From positions 1-47,224 of the IMG/VR virus record IMGVR_UViG_2778261507_000009: a stretch of DNA of 47,224 nucleotides. One strand, given 5' to 3'. A program made the translations under genes and the position numbers. The first letter of the stretch is position 1, and each line of letters starts with the position of its first letter. Shown here in pieces: positions 7,195 to 16,814 of the stretch. The notes under the pieces are model-generated. The model was given only the letters and a program-made list of their open reading frames with translations, was not told the origin of the DNA and searched no databases. This stretch comes from a virus (taxonomy: Duplodnaviria; Heunggongvirae; Uroviricota; Caudoviricetes).

Positions 7195-8163
7195 TTAGTA
7201 GGTTATTTTTGTTGCGAATACTTCGCCTTTTACGATGGCTGTTATGATATTTTTAGCAACATCTTCTGATGCACCAACCTTGATAAGGTCAGCAAGTATT
7301 TTGTTATTTACTTCTTTCCGGTGAGCTTTATCCTTTGCTCTACGCTCTTCTTCTTCCTTGATTCTTTTTTCTTCTGCTATTCTGGCTTGCTCTTTTGCTT
7401 CAGCCTCGCGCCGGATTCGTTCAGCCTCCTCCTGTGCTTTTCGGCGTTCTGCTTCAATTGCCGCCTGCTTTTCTCTTTCAGCTCGTTCTGCTGCCTCTTT
7501 TGCTTCGCGCTGTGCTCGTTGCTCGGCTTCAATGCGTTCACGCTCTGCACGTTCCGCTGCGGCCTTAGCTTCTGCTTCTCGCCTTGCTGCTGCTTCAATT
7601 TCGGCTTTTGCCTTTGCTTCGGCTTCTGCTCTGGCTCTCTCTTCAGCTTCTCTTTTTAAGCGTTCTTCATGCTCTCGCTTTTCCCGCTCCGCTTTGAGTC
7701 TTGCCTCTTCTCTTTGGCGGTCAAATTCGCGATCCATCAAAATCGCTATTTCATGGTCAGACTCAATTTGCTTTGCGAGAGCTTCAGCTGCTGCCTTAGC
7801 TTCTTCTTCGGCTTTAATCCGTGCCTGCTCCTCCTCATAATCAGTAAGAGGCTGGCGCGCCTTGGCTTTCAGTTCATCAAGGCGATCGCGCACTGTCTTG
7901 CGGTTGGCATCAATTAGCTTTGGAATTTCCTTCAGTTCAGCAACAAGGTCTTTGCCAAGACCATCGAGATATGTTTTCGTCTGCGCAACTTTATACGCCA
8001 GAGAAGCGATCTCCTTTCTGCCCTTTGCCGTTGTGATATCAGGCACAAAGGACATAACTTCACGTTCAACCTTTTGAAGGATTTCTTCAATCTGGTCGGC
8101 AGACTGAAATACAGTCATTGCATTTGCTTTTTCAATAACAACTAAATCTGTTACTTCACTCAT
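7195..8163 (-). CDS. Hypothetical coiled-coil protein with long Glu/Arg/Ala-rich low-complexity repeat
   Basis: 322-aa ORF; central roughly 130 residues are EAxxAR-type repeats. Confidence 0.6.
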   Translation of the reverse strand: MSEVTDLVVIEKANAMTVFQSADQIEEILQKVEREVMSFVPDITTAKGRKEIASLAYKVAQTKTYLDGLGKDLVAELKEIPKLIDANRKTVRDRLDELKAKARQPLTDYEEEQARIKAEEEAKAAAEALAKQIESDHEIAILMDREFDRQREEARLKAEREKREHEERLKREAEERARAEAEAKAKAEIEAAARREAEAKAAAERAERERIEAEQRAQREAKEAAERAEREKQAAIEAERRKAQEEAERIRREAEAKEQARIAEEKRIKEEEERRAKDKAHRKEVNNKILADLIKVGASEDVAKNIITAIVKGEVFATKITY

Positions 8164-8198
8164 ATATCCTCCTTAATTTGTATGCGTCAAATCCGCGC

Positions 8199-8510
8199 TC
8201 AGGCTGCTGAGGTTTCTTCTTTCAGGCTTTCGATATATTTACGTGGGTCGTCGTAACATTGGCATTCGCTGTACCAATCCACCCAGCGATCAGTAAGCCC
8301 CATCTCTGATAAATCTTCATCGGTAAGGCTCTCATCCCACATCTCAAGGCCGTTAGCATTGCAGTAATCAGGCTTGATGTTGTTGTCATACTGAAAGGCG
8401 TCATAATCAGCCAGTGCGTCCATCAGGCGAACACCCTCTTCAACACTTGCCACTTCTACAATGAACGGCTTCATAGGTACTTGCGGGATATGCCAGACAC
8501 GTAATTTCAT
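8199..8510 (-). CDS. Hypothetical strongly acidic small protein
   Basis: 103-aa ORF; about 24 Asp/Glu versus about 9 basic residues. Confidence 0.5.
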   Translation of the reverse strand: MKLRVWHIPQVPMKPFIVEVASVEEGVRLMDALADYDAFQYDNNIKPDYCNANGLEMWDESLTDEDLSEMGLTDRWVDWYSECQCYDDPRKYIESLKEETSAA

Positions 8511-8828
8511 ATTTCCTCCGTCAAAAAAATTGCCCTCAATATGATGGCAAAGAAGATTTCCAATAATCAGAACAAGTCGGCTCCTGTTTAGTTACGAGCG
8601 ACATTGCTCCGTGTATTCACTCGTTGGAATGAATACACAGTGCAGTATTTATTCTGTTATTTATGCCAAAAGTAAAGGCCGAATATTCGGCTTCATTCCT
8701 CAAACTTAATCTCTGCTATTTCCCGGTCACCATCGCAAAACAGGTAAGATTCAGAGAACTGGTTTATAAATGAAATTATTCTTTCAATTTTAATTAGCGA
8801 ATATTTCTGCTCTAATGGGTTATGCGGC

Positions 8829-9686
8829 TTAAGCGAAGCACAGTCCAGAATCGCAGAATTGTATAAGATCCATTTGTGCATTTTTACCACCACTAGGTGT
8901 TAGTGGTGCCTCAGATAGTGGAACACCATATTTAGTAAGCCACAAATGAGGCCACTTCATTTGTATCTCTTTTTCATGCTGACATGCTCTTTCAAAATCA
9001 GATGGGACGTTATTTTTCATATAAAGCCACAGATCATCATCTCTGTTAGGGCACATCCAGCAAAGCGAGGCAGGTGGTGTAGGAAGACCATAATCCTCGA
9101 CACATTGAATTGCCATCTGTTTAGTCATTAGCATTTCAATAAGTGGATAGCGCCTCTGCCACTTGCCAGTTGGGTATTTCGCTCTTCGTTTAGCCTCTTC
9201 AATGCTTATCCCCATCCAACTATCCACTCCTCTTGCTGTAAGATACTTCTCTCCATATCTTTCATTTAAAAATCTCTGAATAACTTCAGTTTTCCACTTT
9301 ATAGAACAAAATGCTGGTTGCTTTCCAGCGCACATTCCTTTTGAATCCCTTCCCTCATATTCTGTGAAATATCCAGGTAGAGGAACGTCTGGATCAGGCC
9401 CATCAATGTCGTAGGTAGCAAATCTACTTTTAGGAACAATCAGGTAATCAACACCCATATCTTCACAAATAGGAGCTATATATTTTTTCTGATATTCAAA
9501 TACATTACTTGCCTCACGTTCTGTATCTGACATAACGATAATGTCAGGCTTTGGAAGAACGCCAGCATGTACTAAGCAGATTATTGCGTTACTTTGAGTC
9601 CCACCACCGGAAGAAATAACATTTAGTCTTTCTGGATTATGCTTGAATTCTCTTCTTGGTATGAATTTACTTGTAAATCCTGGCAT
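8829..9686 (-). CDS. PAPS reductase-like PP-loop ATP pyrophosphatase family protein
   Basis: 285-aa ORF; SGGGTQS PP-loop near N-terminus and Cys-rich C-terminal region. Confidence 0.6.
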   Translation of the reverse strand: MPGFTSKFIPRREFKHNPERLNVISSGGGTQSNAIICLVHAGVLPKPDIIVMSDTEREASNVFEYQKKYIAPICEDMGVDYLIVPKSRFATYDIDGPDPDVPLPGYFTEYEGRDSKGMCAGKQPAFCSIKWKTEVIQRFLNERYGEKYLTARGVDSWMGISIEEAKRRAKYPTGKWQRRYPLIEMLMTKQMAIQCVEDYGLPTPPASLCWMCPNRDDDLWLYMKNNVPSDFERACQHEKEIQMKWPHLWLTKYGVPLSEAPLTPSGGKNAQMDLIQFCDSGLCFA

Positions 9687-9687
9687 G

Positions 9688-9819
9688 TTATCTCCTTGTC
9701 TTTACAATTTGATAATCCTGACCTGTTTGTTTTGCGTATTGCTCAGCCTGTTCTTTTGTTTTGAAAGAGTTTCCGCAAACCCATCTACCGCAACTTCTGT
9801 ATTGAATTTGGTAGCTCAT
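9688..9819 (-). CDS. Small hypothetical protein upstream of the PAPS reductase-like gene
   Basis: 43-aa ORF with GAGGGG RBS; stop 1 nt before the next start. Confidence 0.35.
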   Translation of the reverse strand: MSYQIQYRSCGRWVCGNSFKTKEQAEQYAKQTGQDYQIVKTRR

Positions 9820-9822
9820 ATC

Positions 9823-10128
9823 TCACCCCTCATACAGTGGTTTGCTGCCTAATTTCATTTTCTGGCGACCAACACAAGTCACACCCATTTCACTGCGTGG
9901 CTTGCGGTAGTAAATACGGTTCTGTTTACGCTCGACTTCTTCTGCCTTCTTGCAGCGAAGGCTTCCGAGTGATGCTGCTTTATCTGCTCTGACGCAACCA
10001 GAGAGCTTTAGCGCAATTTTTCGCGCCAGTCGCTGCTCTTGCATTGCCTGTTCACGTTGAGCCTGTCTGCGTGCTCTGCGGCGATTTCTGGCGTTATCGT
10101 CAGCCAGATATGTAATGACTACTGTCAT
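9823..10128 (-). CDS. N: N-type transcription antiterminator (non-lambda specificity)
   Basis: 101-aa ORF first gene after pL; arginine-rich motif NARNRRRARRQAQREQ; GGAGG RBS. Confidence 0.6.
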   Translation of the reverse strand: MTVVITYLADDNARNRRRARRQAQREQAMQEQRLARKIALKLSGCVRADKAASLGSLRCKKAEEVERKQNRIYYRKPRSEMGVTCVGRQKMKLGSKPLYEG

Positions 10129-10236
10129 GTTGACCTCCGATGATTGACTTTGGCGGTGACGCGCCGGGTGCTTATCTTCCGGTTGCCGTCGTGCAGCTGC
10201 ACTTCACGTCACCCCAAAGCCAACTACTCTTTGGTT

Positions 10237-10280
10237 CCCGCATTTCGGCGGGACAATCCCATCAATGTTAAAGAGCCTGC
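10237..10280 (-). promoter_or_regulatory. nutL-like site (boxA GCTCTTTAA and boxB hairpin CCCGC-CGAAAU-GCGGG)
   Basis: boxA-like then hairpin on minus strand between pL and N; same boxB recurs at nutR. Confidence 0.45.
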
Positions 10281-10319
10281 CAATCTGTTCCGTTTGGCTA
10301 CCAGCTTCCTGCTGATGTG

Positions 10320-10385
10320 TTTAGTATCACCGCTAGTGGTATTTATGTCAACACCGCCAGAGATAATTTATCACCGCAGATGGTT
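10320..10385 (-). promoter_or_regulatory. pL promoter with OL1-OL2-OL3 operators (lambda type)
   Basis: Three 17-bp operators; -35 TTGACA and -10 GATACT on minus strand. Confidence 0.75.
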
Positions 10386-10530
10386 ATCTGTATGTTTTTT
10401 ATATATATTTATTTTTTGCCGGGGTGTGTTGCTGGGGGGATCGAGAGATCAGAATTGCGATGTTTAGTGAGTTGTATCTATTTATTTTTCAATAAATACA
10501 ATTGATTATGTTTTTTAGGTGGACGATCGT

Positions 10531-10561
10531 GAGGCAAAGAAAACCCGGCGCTGAGGCCGGG
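10531..10561 (-). terminator. Intrinsic terminator ending the cI immunity transcript (t-imm-like)
   Basis: 6-bp GC stem CCCGGC/GCCGGG followed by T-run on minus strand, 8 nt after the stop of 10569..11441. Confidence 0.55.
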
Positions 10562-10568
10562 TTGTATA

Positions 10569-11441
10569 TTATTTAATTTCTTTTTCCGGTAAATACATTG
10601 TCATTTGAACAGGTTTCTTTCCATAGTGTTGAGCAACTCGACTTCTTAGCTCATGCATGGTGTCGCATGTTTTTGCGACCCCAATAACCTCCCAGCACCT
10701 TGATACAAGCTGCCTTACACCTAGGTTCTCGGTTAACTGTCTATGCCAGTGAACTCCTGCCGCAGGCTTGTTTTCTTTAAGATATTTAGCCACATCTTCG
10801 TCAAGAGTGTCATAAATTAACTCTATAACTAATTTCCCCCACCATTTGGGCCTTGATTGCAATGGGGTACTCCATCCTGTCAATCTACCAAATTCTTCCC
10901 ATAACTCATCAGGAAATGTTTTTTCCCATGCTCTTAGTTCCTCAGCGATGAACGCCCTGAGTTTTACTTGGAGAGCATCCTCTGCGCGCTCATACTGATA
11001 CCCAGTAGCCTCATCAATTAGAGCATCTAACCCAGTCCTGGTTAAACCTGCTGTTAATACAGCACATTTAATTGCTATTTCTCGCTGTCTATCTGTCAAT
11101 GGCGCGCCTTTGTATAGCGCCTGTACATAGCCGCGACAAATCAATTCAAATTGCTCAGTCTTAAGTCCTTGGCTCTTAAATTGGGTTCCTGGTATGGAAA
11201 ACTCTATGAGTTCGGCCAGGACTAAGTCTTTGTCTATAAAGCCATTAAGTGAGCTAACGCCAATAAATTTAGCCAGGTCTCCTGACTCCGCATTGGCAAT
11301 TGCTTTTACAGTTGCTCGCAAAGCTATAACACGATGTCCAGTGTCAAGCACATAGCAATCAATACTTTCACCACCTAAGTCGATCTTCCCCTTCCATTTT
11401 GCGAATGGGGATGGTAATTGCTGTAAATCATCATGTTCCAT
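10569..11441 (-). CDS. Unknown protein co-transcribed with cI, occupying the rexA-rexB slot
   Basis: 290-aa ORF starting 31 nt downstream of cI stop on the same strand; no recognisable motifs; alternative upstream start at 11537 would overlap cI. Confidence 0.55.
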   Translation of the reverse strand: MEHDDLQQLPSPFAKWKGKIDLGGESIDCYVLDTGHRVIALRATVKAIANAESGDLAKFIGVSSLNGFIDKDLVLAELIEFSIPGTQFKSQGLKTEQFELICRGYVQALYKGAPLTDRQREIAIKCAVLTAGLTRTGLDALIDEATGYQYERAEDALQVKLRAFIAEELRAWEKTFPDELWEEFGRLTGWSTPLQSRPKWWGKLVIELIYDTLDEDVAKYLKENKPAAGVHWHRQLTENLGVRQLVSRCWEVIGVAKTCDTMHELRSRVAQHYGKKPVQMTMYLPEKEIK

Positions 11442-11472
11442 TAATTGAATTACCCTTTTTTGCTGCGTTGAA

Positions 11473-12189
<717 letters not shown>

Positions 12190-15849: not shown

Positions 15850-16290
15850 ATGAAAAAACTAACCTTTGAAATTCGATCTCCAGCACATCAGCAAAACGCT
15901 ATTCACGCAGTACAGCAAATCCTTCCAGACCCAACCAAACCAATCGTAGTAACCATTCAGGAACGCAACCGCAGCTTAGACCAGAATAGAAAGCTTTGGG
16001 CTTGCCTTGGTGACGTCTCTCGTCAGGTTGAATGGCATGGTCGCTGGCTGGATGCAGAAAGCTGGAAGTGTGTGTTTACCGCAGCATTAAAGCAGCAGGA
16101 TGTTGTTCCTAACCTTGCAGGGAATGGCTTTGTGGTAATAGGCCAGTCAACAAGCAGGATGCGTGTAAGCGAATTTGCGGAGCTATTAGAGCTTATACAG
16201 GCATTCGGTACAGAGCGTGGCGTTAAGTGGTCAGACGAAGCTCGACTGGCTCTCGAATGGAAAGCGCGATGGGGAGATCGGGCAGCATGA
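15850..16290 (+). CDS. ninB: NinB recombination protein
   Basis: 146-aa ORF from MKKLTFEIRSPAHQQNAIHAVQQ matching lambda NinB as recalled. Confidence 0.85.
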   Translation: MKKLTFEIRSPAHQQNAIHAVQQILPDPTKPIVVTIQERNRSLDQNRKLWACLGDVSRQVEWHGRWLDAESWKCVFTAALKQQDVVPNLAGNGFVVIGQSTSRMRVSEFAELLELIQAFGTERGVKWSDEARLALEWKARWGDRAA

Positions 16291-16814
16291 CTATCAAATC
16301 AAATACGCCAGCACACGACAAGGACTGCTGGCAAACGCCGCTTTGGCTTTTTGATGCACTGGATATTGAGTTTGGATTCTGGCTGGATTCGGCAGCGAGC
16401 GACAAAAATGCTCTGTGTGCTCACTGGCTAACTGAGGCCGACGACGCGCTAAATTCTGAGTGGATAAGCCACGGGGCAATCTGGAATAACCCACCGTACA
16501 GCAATATCAGGCCGTGGGTGGAAAAAGCCGCTGAGCAGTGCATACAACAGCGACAGACGGTAGTTATGCTTGTGCCAGAGGATATGTCAGTCGGATGGTT
16601 CAGCAAGGCTCTGGAGAGTGTCGACGAAGTTCGCATTATCACTGATGGACGGATTAATTTTATCGAACCATCGACAGGGCTGGAGAAGAAGGGAAACAGC
16701 AAAGGCTCCATGCTGCTGATTTGGCGACCGTTCATCAGTCCTCGACGGATGTTTACTACCGTATCAAAAGCGGCATTGATGGCGATCGGGCAGGGCGTCA
16801 GGAGGGCGGCATGA
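16287..16814 (+). CDS. DNA N6-adenine methyltransferase (phage Dam-like)
   Basis: 176-aa ORF with NPPY catalytic motif; ATGA overlap with ninB stop. Confidence 0.7.

Follow-up and report, generated by a model that had tools for sequence, protein, structure and literature searches.

An SspD/PptA-like PP-loop enzyme in an exchangeable cassette of a lambda-type pL operon, a candidate early counter-measure to host restriction

In the window, which is the whole 47,224-nucleotide stretch of viral DNA analysed here, three minus-strand ORFs form one AT-rich cassette of 1.12 kb (8695-9816). From upstream to downstream, they are a 43-aa gene (9688..9819), the gene of an SspD/PptA-like PP-loop enzyme of 285 aa (8829..9686) and a 62-aa gene (8693..8881), which shares its first part with the 3'-terminal 53 nt of the enzyme gene, in a different reading frame. 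The GC content is 0.39 within the cassette and 0.47 over the whole window. Directly upstream lies the minus-strand gene of an N-like antiterminator (9823-10128; PHROG 271, E 5e-38), the end of which is separated from the 43-aa ORF by 3 nt, in agreement with the predicted position of the cluster immediately downstream of N. The three ORFs and the hairpin listed in the original prediction were all recovered in place.

Homology to a lambdoid prophage bearing ral and Nmad5 breaks at 8694 and resumes at 9817, marking 8695..9816 as an exchangeable cassette, to which as a unit no strand is assigned. The slot downstream of N is thus occupied by the cassette in this phage, and by ral, or by ral and Nmad5, in other lambdoid prophages. 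This three-gene cassette next to the early regulator gene N is a rare one. A Pfam search identified a P22 gp17 superinfection-exclusion-related gene as a neighbour of the cassette, while an Rfam search of 8000-10700 gave no match.

A lambda-type pL promoter (TTGACA-17-GATACT) is located on the minus strand at 10323..10351, where it would drive N and the cassette. Since no strong terminator-like site was found on the minus strand between pL and the cassette, the cassette is probably read from pL; the sole terminator-like site on this strand from pL through the cassette is a weak 5-bp stem within the enzyme gene. A promoter search of the cassette itself found none. The cassette had been described as a 'moron' inside the pL operon. 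Its location within the pL transcript agrees with that description, but the strict sense of the label is unsupported, since the promoter search gave no indication of a self-contained unit. Downstream, a minus-strand terminator-like hairpin, GCCGAATATTCGGC, with the tail CTTTACTTTT, occupies 8668..8691 in the conserved downstream flank of the slot. The hairpin proper, GGCCGAATATTCGGC (8677-8691), was called as terminator-like with a T-rich tail and has a folding energy of -11.4 kcal/mol (z = -2.3). Two related loci, L040 and L044, bear hairpins at the equivalent place, with stem sequences differing from that of the window. The hairpin predicted at about 8677..8691 is therefore present and terminator-like, but it is part of the shared slot flank and lies outside the cassette.

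The same arrangement bears on the possibility that the enzyme is a component of prophage defence or exclusion, which would mark the lysogen DNA or act with exclusion genes such as gp17. The gp17-related gene next door, the listing of SspD as a defence-system component in PADLOC and the frequency of defence genes in prophages would all fit such a role. However, the pL operon downstream of N is repressed in the lysogen, the window contains neither a restriction nor a sensor partner, the related loci show no recurrent one, and homologues occur in lytic phages, such as the T7-like VH-5. We regard this role as highly improbable, and a defence gene expressed in the lysogen was rejected on the basis of the position and the missing promoter.

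Both small genes show signs of selection as coding sequences. The TAA stop of the 43-aa ORF is located 1 nt ahead of the ATG of the enzyme gene, as predicted for a tightly coupled ORF, and the ORF contains an AAGGAG Shine-Dalgarno sequence. As compared to L040, 17 of the 19 nucleotide differences in this ORF fall at third codon positions (16 synonymous and 2 non-synonymous changes). In L044, the 43-aa protein is 56% identical and the enzyme 80% identical. The 43-aa protein has a weak match to PHROG 15891 (E 5e-5), and a weak Pfam match to NDUS4 (E 4e-4) that did not reach the cutoff was dismissed as a chance hit. It is a small orphan protein whose gene accompanies that of the enzyme. For the downstream ORF, the likely start is the ATG at 8881, giving the 62-aa form that is also annotated publicly (P0248), while a GTG at 8893 is another possible start and would give 66 aa (8693-8893, minus strand). 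In the 45 codons that do not overlap the enzyme gene, 17 of the 28 differences from L040 are at third positions, as are 22 of the 39 differences from L044 over 43 aligned codons. The stop codon and the C-terminal 46 codons are conserved in both loci, and in L044 the gene begins at an ATGA overlap with the stop of the enzyme gene. The overlapping ORF, originally proposed only as possible at 8693..8893, is upheld by this third-position bias and the conserved stop, with its likely start refined to 8881. Searches with the 43-aa and 62-aa proteins returned only near-identical copies. The enzyme gene is itself under purifying selection, with 112 synonymous and 21 non-synonymous codon changes relative to a 93%-identical copy. 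All three are more than chance ORFs.

The 285-aa enzyme contains the loop SSGGGTQS at S25-S32 and ten cysteines, six of them within the C-terminal half, confirming the predicted SGGGTQS motif and Cys-rich C-terminal half, and its C-terminus reads ...FCDSGLCFA. It has the Rossmann-like alpha/beta fold common to PP-loop ATP pyrophosphatases and PAPS reductases. In the loop, Q31 takes the place of the Asp of the classical SGGxDS motif, as in CysH, and SGGGTQS is nearer the CysH type (SxGxQ) than the ATP-pyrophosphatase SGGxDS; the use of ATP by the enzyme is therefore uncertain. In an alignment of 45 sequences (A1), D48, T55, E58, C127, K132, R168, C209, C212, C278 and C283 are invariant. In a second alignment of 61 sequences (A2), the members of which are only 25-62% identical, G27, G29 and Q31 of the loop do not vary, and neither do E58, C127, K132, R167, C209, C212 and C283, while T55 and C278 are kept in at least 90% of the members, and D48 and R168 drop from the conserved columns.

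The conserved cysteines include a set that would suit an Fe-S site, as the original prediction had proposed to check. C127, C209 and C212 are invariant and are candidates for the three cysteines that bind the cluster in [4Fe-4S] sulfurtransferases of the TtuA/NcsA/LarE type, but their order differs from the CxxC...C of the TtuA type. In the predicted model, residues 268-277, at the start of the C-terminal tail, have pLDDT values below 50, and the last 15 residues, including the Cys pair C278/C283, average 46-49. The conservation of the Cys triad and the Cys pair across distant members points to catalysis with sulfur or to an Fe-S site.

The family of the enzyme is very large, with homologues in 97 clusters at 90% identity and 6,939 clusters at 50% identity, and its members are mostly stand-alone and located on phages and plasmids. 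By sequence comparison, its closest defined relative is SspD. SspD is the sulfurtransferase/ATP pyrophosphatase of the SspABCD single-strand DNA phosphorothioation system, and is normally encoded with SspB (DUF4007) and SspC (an ATPase), and usually with SspA and SspE. The PADLOC SspD model, which at 277 positions is close to the enzyme in length, was matched by 56 of the 61 family members (best E 2.7e-24), and by the window protein with an E of 3e-7, partially, over residues 120-252 only, a region that includes C127..K132 and C209xxC212. These scores indicate a related family rather than orthologues. Furthermore, SspD belongs in defence islands whereas the present family resides on phages and plasmids, and no SspA, SspB, SspC or SspE neighbour of the enzyme was found in the window or in the related loci. 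Among the 61 members, two match the PADLOC model of BrxP and none matches that of DndC. No informative fusion was found among the longer family members.

The original prediction had placed the enzyme in the PAPS-reductase/PP-loop superfamily and cited DndC-like proteins as examples of its nucleic-acid-modification enzymes. The superfamily fold holds, but the nearest defined family is SspD and DndC is unmatched. Neither the window protein nor the 61 relatives matched the DndC models of PADLOC and NCBIfam, and no dndBDE genes lie near the enzyme gene in the window, so that membership of DndC was rejected. DndC is a PP-loop protein with a [4Fe-4S] cluster on three cysteines and a Cys dyad believed to receive its sulfur from DndA/IscS (PMC10853773), which is the same logic of a Cys cluster and a Cys pair as proposed here for the enzyme.

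Affiliation to CysH was likewise rejected. The window protein has no match in Pfam (E<=0.1) or NCBIfam, tRNA thiolase models included, and a single-sequence search against the PDB gave none. In the HMM comparison with PAPS_reduct that had been proposed, only 14 of 61 relatives match PF01507 (best E 1e-4), and a single one of the 61 family members matches the CysH model PRK02090 of NCBIfam. With E. coli CysH, hhalign aligned 58 N-terminal columns only, at a probability of 44%, covering nothing beyond the nucleotide-binding motifs, and the enzyme lacks the C-terminal catalytic ECG[LI]H motif (ECGLH) of CysH and APS reductase. The prediction that the enzyme is not a sulfate-assimilation CysH is borne out by these data. 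They also weigh against an auxiliary metabolic gene, namely an APS/PAPS reductase raising the supply of sulfite and cysteine during infection, which the usual annotation 'PAPS reductase' would imply. Moreover, the hosts already possess cysH, the gene is seated in an anti-restriction slot of an early operon, and plasmid homologues lie beside ArdC and ParB. A metabolic role therefore seems very unlikely.

The sole solved relative found by sequence is PptA (PDB 21fy; profile search E 1.1e-7). Aligned with the enzyme family by hhalign (probability 96%, E 3.7e-9), it shares about 19% identity with the family consensus across 149 aligned columns. PptA, which is about 250 aa long and is a phage protein that stands alone, also matches the SspD model, and tblastn of the aligned fragment revealed 100% identity to a protein of Vibrio phage vB_VhaP_VH-5, a lytic T7-like phage in which the gene lies just after the RNA polymerase gene. 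The two proteins share the C..K, GxxxxExxR, PL and CxxC elements and the C-terminal Cys pair: C92..K97, C173xxC176 and C237xxxC241 in PptA, and C127..K132, C209xxC212 and C278xxxxC283 in the window protein. Their loops, on the other hand, differ, being SCGAPS in PptA and SGGGTQS in the enzyme. A search of the IscS-bearing PDB entries showed that 21fy also contains the E. coli cysteine desulfurase IscS, and this joint deposition supports sulfur transfer by the enzyme. A literature search for PptA returned only unrelated uses of the name, and a paper describing this protein was not found.

PP-loop chemistry could also proceed without the transfer of sulfur into nucleic acid, either by adenylating or amidating a base, a nucleotide or a protein in the manner of QueC, Cap9 and LarE, or by sequestration of IscS, which would starve the sulfur-dependent pathways of the host. 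Against this stand the Cys triad and C-terminal Cys pair, which are conserved in very distant members, and the fact that the closest defined family, SspD, is a sulfurtransferase. We consider such chemistry unlikely.

For the partner search, ORFs were called in 114 related loci, and the neighbours were clustered and searched with seeded phmmer. The proposed search for co-occurring partners yielded none, as no partner gene recurs in the 114 loci. Specifically, the window lacks an ATPase or DNA-recognition partner (DndD/E, SspB/C or BrxC), and these loci contain no recurrent one. In 11 of 70 non-redundant loci, a methyltransferase gene lies no more than 6 kb to either side, and in some relatives (L009) a Dam gene lies directly upstream of the homologue. 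This association is occasional and may just reflect a shared early-region location. ParB is found in essentially one phage lineage among the related loci; in Serratia-type prophages, a ParB-family gene lies at a distance of 2-3 genes. The hypothesis of an obligate partner of the subfamily, either a methyltransferase or ParB, was dropped, as neither recurs in the 114 loci.

A phmmer search with two ParB seeds detected no ParB-like gene among the window ORFs of at least 60 aa. The predicted lack of a ParB-like partner thus holds for the window, but distant plasmid homologues do adjoin ParB-family genes, in Phaeobacter, Sphingopyxis and Streptomyces, and on Agrobacterium and Mesorhizobium plasmids the start of the homologue overlaps the stop of ArdC. 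This is reminiscent of IbrA/YbdN, PAPS-reductase-like proteins on mobile elements that are paired with the ParB-like IbrB/YbdM; unlike these pairs, the window has no adjacent ParB-like gene, and its protein is unmatched in NCBIfam. With ArdC and ParB as their neighbours, the plasmid homologues point to DNA, and hence away from an RNA enzyme that would use IscS-derived sulfur to thiolate or modify tRNA or rRNA, as TtuA, NcsA, TtcA and ThiI do, thereby tuning translation or shielding tRNAs from anticodon nucleases of the host. The affinity of the sequence to SspD rather than to tRNA enzymes, the absence of the classical SGGKDS loop and the lack of any match to tRNA thiolase models in Pfam or NCBIfam also argue against an RNA enzyme, which we find quite unlikely.

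A precedent for an anti-defence role comes from Vibrio phages: a phage that received two genes of another, one of them a PAPS-domain-Dam fusion, was able to escape the Dnd system of the host (Piel et al., preprint 10.1101/2021.05.05.442762). This fusion, p0018 of Vibrio crassostreae podophages (Piel et al. 2022), is phage-borne and located in a variable region. However, its PAPS domain is detectable by Pfam and fused to Dam, unlike the stand-alone enzyme here, and it moved with a second gene, so that the role of the PAPS domain alone was not isolated. p0018 is absent from the tblastn matches to the window protein. Phage PAPS reductases have also been named as candidate anti-defence genes (PMC13551039). 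From the homology, the ral slot, the plasmid ArdC/ParB neighbours and the one published Dam-fused PAPS case, we infer roles in nucleic-acid modification and anti-defence.

The cassette is most likely an early counter-measure to host restriction rather than a sulfur-metabolism gene. More specifically, our preferred explanation, which we put at somewhat below an even chance, is that it provides a stand-alone IscS-fed sulfurtransferase of the SspD/PptA type that is made early from pL, acts on nucleic acid and probably aids escape from phosphorothioate-based restriction. Given its position, the cassette would be transcribed along with N from pL, immediately upon infection or induction. The N-terminal PP-loop domain would bind an adenine nucleotide, and C127, C209 and C212 may hold a [4Fe-4S] cluster beside K132. 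The flexible C-terminal C278/C283 pair would then take persulfide sulfur from the host IscS and deliver it to the active site. The likeliest target would be phage DNA, by backbone phosphorothioation or a related thiolation, and incoming or replicating phage DNA could thereby escape restriction of the Dnd/Ssp type, which relies on phosphorothioate marks. The enzyme would thus play in this slot the part that Ral has against type I restriction elsewhere among lambdoid phages. More speculatively, the two small proteins encoded alongside may aid targeting or regulation. Every known phosphorothioation system also requires an ATPase and a partner for DNA recognition (DndD/E, SspB/C or BrxC). It appears doubtful that the enzyme, alone or with its small partners, is a self-sufficient IscS-fed writer of sulfur marks on phage DNA that dispenses with ATPase and recognition subunits.

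Phages and plasmids often carry PAPS-reductase-like genes, which are usually filed under sulfur metabolism. The enzyme is a compact member of this poorly understood kind, and it sits in the best-understood setting, the ral slot of a lambda-type pL operon in E. coli. Were it shown to place sulfur marks on phage DNA, or to inactivate phosphorothioate-based immunity, its mode of action could be dissected by lambda/P22 genetics and by biochemistry with E. coli IscS, and thousands of 'PAPS reductase' annotations in viromes would have to be read differently. Should the enzyme prove to be a self-sufficient writer, it would represent a minimal mobile 'self-camouflage' enzyme common to thousands of phages and plasmids.

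The window is a lambdoid prophage whose immunity is of the lambda type. On its minus strand, a cI-like ORF (11473-12186) and the pL promoter (TTGACA-17-GATACT, 10351-10323) are followed by an N-like antiterminator gene (9823-10128; PHROG 271, E 5e-38), a 43-aa ORF first downstream of N (9688-9819), the 285-aa enzyme ORF (8829-9686), an ORF overlapping the 3' end of the enzyme gene in another frame (8693-8893), a hairpin with a T-rich tail (8691-8668; -11.4 kcal/mol, z = -2.3) and, beyond an ORF-free gap of about 170 nt, a P22 gp17 homologue (8199-8510; PF17420, E 1.5e-55). The coordinates in the original prediction were all correct, and the coupling it described is indeed tight: the stop codon of the 43-aa ORF is separated by 1 nt from the ATG of the 285-aa gene, and within the 43-aa ORF lies a Shine-Dalgarno sequence, AAGGAG.

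Two neighboring 322-aa proteins are also encoded on this strand. A P63C-domain protein (10569-11537; PF10546, E 2.7e-22; PHROG 2384) is encoded immediately downstream of cI, at the position of rexAB in lambda, and is followed by a bidirectional terminator-like hairpin (10542-10563); this gene is a candidate for expression in the lysogen. Its listed ATG overlaps the end of cI, and since the PHROG match begins at residue 29, translation may actually begin at the Met near 11441. The other protein (7195-8163; PHROG 1376) has a long central region rich in Glu, Ala, Lys and Arg. The PGAP name of its counterpart in a related prophage, 'cell envelope biogenesis protein TolA', probably reflects composition and not function.

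Coding signals were compared between the window and two related loci, L040, with an enzyme 93% identical to that of the window and an upstream N allele only 55% identical, and L044, with an 80% identical enzyme. Relative to L040, the enzyme gene shows 112 synonymous and 21 non-synonymous codon changes, and third codon positions account for 17 of the 19 differences in the 43-aa ORF, the protein of which retains 56% identity in L044. The downstream ORF is similarly biased to the third position, with 17 of 28 differences across its 45 non-overlapping codons against L040 and 22 of 39 across the 43 codons aligned with L044. Its stop codon is conserved, and in L044 its start forms an ATGA overlap with the enzyme gene stop. 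In the window it likely starts at the ATG at 8881, giving the 62-aa form that is also called in public annotations. All three ORFs are thus genuine genes of one cassette.

The limits of the cassette were defined by alignment to a lambdoid prophage with ral and a frameshifted Nmad5 gene in the same slot. Homology ends at 8694 and restarts at 9817, and therefore the exchangeable unit is 8695-9816, exactly the three ORFs from the first start codon to the last stop codon. It is AT-rich, with a GC content of 0.39 versus 0.47 for the whole window. In the pL operon N precedes the cassette and the first strong terminator-like hairpin follows it, the sole other terminator-like site on this strand being a weak 5-bp stem within the enzyme gene. 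No promoter-like site was found before the cassette, which is best described as cargo within the pL transcript, a promoter-less three-gene unit and not, in the strict sense, the moron that had been proposed.

The hairpin had been counted as part of the cluster; it belongs instead to the flank common to the window and the ral-Nmad5 prophage, outside 8695-9816. L040 and L044 have hairpins at the same position with different stems, and the terminator-like element is therefore a feature of the slot. This flank, on the downstream side of the cassette (8501-8694, roughly 190 nt), has no ORF in the pL direction. An unrelated lambdoid prophage matches it at 93% identity, and 2,236 of 5,426 complete E. 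coli genomes match its 8540-8692 portion; it resembles a recombination 'boundary sequence' serving the cargo slot after N. Within this flank lies a perfect 9-bp inverted repeat with a 10-nt loop, GTGTATTCA...TGAATACAC (8611-8638, minus strand), which lacks a following T-run and has no Rfam match. The slot holds ral in the lambdoid phages CUS-3, HK140 and N7, and in the E. coli lambdoid prophage L115 (NZ_AP045787.1, 4144-5005) it holds the antirestriction gene Ral followed by a frameshifted gene annotated as 'Nmad5 family putative nucleotide modification protein'. Anti-restriction and nucleic-acid-modification cargo seems to accumulate in this slot. The cassette itself is present in 2 of the 5,426 genomes, in none of the deposited phage genomes and in six viral contigs at 93% identity or more. 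In E. coli H26, the one inspected of the two genomes, PGAP annotates the enzyme as a 'hypothetical protein' and leaves the two small ORFs uncalled.

Searches of Pfam, NCBIfam and, with the single sequence, the PDB gave no match to the window protein, whereas PHROG 424 ('PAPS reductase') matched with E 6e-35. The family comprises 6,939 clusters at 50% identity with E<=1e-3 (1,678 with E<=1e-30), and the best 150 matches are mostly 240-290 aa long. Among 61 aligned members, 25-62% identical to the window protein, loop residues G27, G29 and Q31 are invariant, together with E58, P104, C127, K132, G159, E164, R167, P181, L182, S207, C209, C212 and C283; C278 is kept in at least 90%. The superfamily fold, the conserved loop, the conserved Cys triad and the C-terminal Cys pair are established, and the PP-loop class proposed at the outset holds. 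As also anticipated, the enzyme is not CysH: Pfam PAPS_reduct touches only 14 of the 61 members (best E 1e-4) and an NCBIfam CysH model only one, hhalign with E. coli CysH covers only 58 N-terminal columns containing the SxGxQ loop and the DT..E motif (44% probability), and the C-terminal ECGLH is missing. APS or PAPS reduction by a metabolic gene, the activity in the PHROG name, is accordingly improbable.

The enzyme is not DndC, the example cited at the outset, either; no DndC model matches. The closest relatives are SspD and PptA. The PADLOC model of SspD, which in the SspABCD system for single-strand phosphorothioation is the subunit of PAPS-reductase type (PMC12914056, PMC12707154), matches 56 of the 61 members (best E 2.7e-24) and the window protein at residues 120-252 (E 3e-7). 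These scores indicate a sister family and not orthologues, and neither operon partner, SspB or SspC, is present in the window or in 114 related loci; the protein was therefore not filed as SspD. We are highly confident in calling it an SspD/PptA-like PP-loop enzyme. A defence component of the lysogen, a role in keeping with the SspD match and at odds with the position in the pL operon and the lack of a promoter found for the cassette, is the least probable of the readings weighed here.

A PDB search with the family profile found one chain, 21fy_C 'PptA' (E 1.1e-7), a name for which the literature searched held nothing relevant. By tblastn, the aligned PptA fragment matches at 100% identity a protein from the T7-like Vibrio phage vB_VhaP_VH-5 whose gene directly follows that of the phage RNA polymerase. 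The family aligns with full-length PptA over 149 columns (hhalign, 96% probability), and the layouts match: C92..K97, C173xxC176 and C-terminal C237xxxC241 in PptA correspond to C127..K132, C209xxC212 and C278xxxxC283 in the window protein. PptA also matches the SspD model. The exact E. coli IscS sequence occurs in two PDB entries, 1p3w and 21fy, so that 21fy holds both proteins and is presumably a PptA-IscS complex. This shared entry is the strongest evidence for sulfur handling by the family, and IscS-dependent sulfur transfer is somewhat favored. IscS sequestration, taken with other PP-loop chemistry, is unlikely, though the least so of the alternatives. IscS donates sulfur both in DndC-type phosphorothioation and in tRNA thiolation (PMC10853773; established knowledge); thiolation of tRNA or other RNA by the enzyme is also unlikely, if less so than a reductase role.

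In phages and prophages the enzyme gene lies among early, replication or accessory genes, and none of its neighbors recurs as a partner in the 114 related loci. Among close relatives, the gene directly upstream can be, for example, Dam (L009), an N6 methyltransferase (L041), a C5 methyltransferase (Orbus, L005), lambda P or an exoribonuclease-like gene. Of 70 non-redundant loci, 11 contain a methyltransferase, an association regarded as no more than co-location. The window encodes a Dam-family DNA adenine methyltransferase in the nin region (16227-16814, plus strand; phmmer match with a Pfam-confirmed Dam seed, E 4.5e-73), which could act in trans, because some other phages have Dam either fused to a PAPS-like gene or next to one. 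In keeping with the original prediction, no ParB-like gene is found among window ORFs of at least 60 aa. In a Serratia marcescens prophage (L002/L003, 4202-5999), genes for an HTH_ParB protein, a ParE-like protein and a 251-aa protein without a Pfam match, ending 1 nt before the enzyme start, precede a 76% identical enzyme gene; the enzyme may thus be served by another set of accessory genes in Serratia-type prophages.

Homologues are found in 180 plasmid records, 104 of them from Agrobacterium. In pTi-SAKURA (L116, NC_002147.1, 6066-7930) and a Mesorhizobium plasmid (L118, 3072-4861), full-length homologues of 24-27% identity start by overlapping the stop codon of ArdC, an anti-restriction gene, a pairing not found in the literature searched. 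In Phaeobacter, Sphingopyxis and Streptomyces plasmids the homologue adjoins ParB-family genes, with an SSB gene also nearby in Streptomyces. The plasmid homologues keep anti-restriction company. When two genes, one a PAPS-domain-Dam fusion, were moved between Vibrio podophages, the recipient evaded the Dnd system of its host (Piel et al., preprint 10.1101/2021.05.05.442762). Phage PAPS reductases, as predicted DndC/SspD homologues, have been listed as candidate anti-defence genes (Feussner et al. 2026, PMC13551039), a Thermus phage study termed their function open, and solo SspD matches in prophages have been recorded, unexplained (PMC12429752).

Taken together, the enzyme would be produced alongside N as soon as infection or induction begins, and C127, C209 and C212 would be its ligands for an Fe-S cluster. 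The flexible pair of C-terminal Cys residues would accept persulfide sulfur from host IscS for thiolation of nucleic acid, most likely the phage DNA backbone, allowing the phage to pass phosphorothioate-based restriction. Counter-defence as such stands at about even chances, and the whole chain falls a little short of that. To our knowledge, every phosphorothioation system requires an ATPase and a DNA-recognition subunit; neither was found here, which counts against this reading, as do the loop, of the CysH and not the ATP-pyrophosphatase type, and the distance of PptA as a relative. The function originally proposed, nucleic-acid modification or anti-defence, is plausible. The cassette enzyme adds a new and rare E. 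coli member to a known kind of mobile-element gene, and its prophage setting makes the question of its function easy to test.
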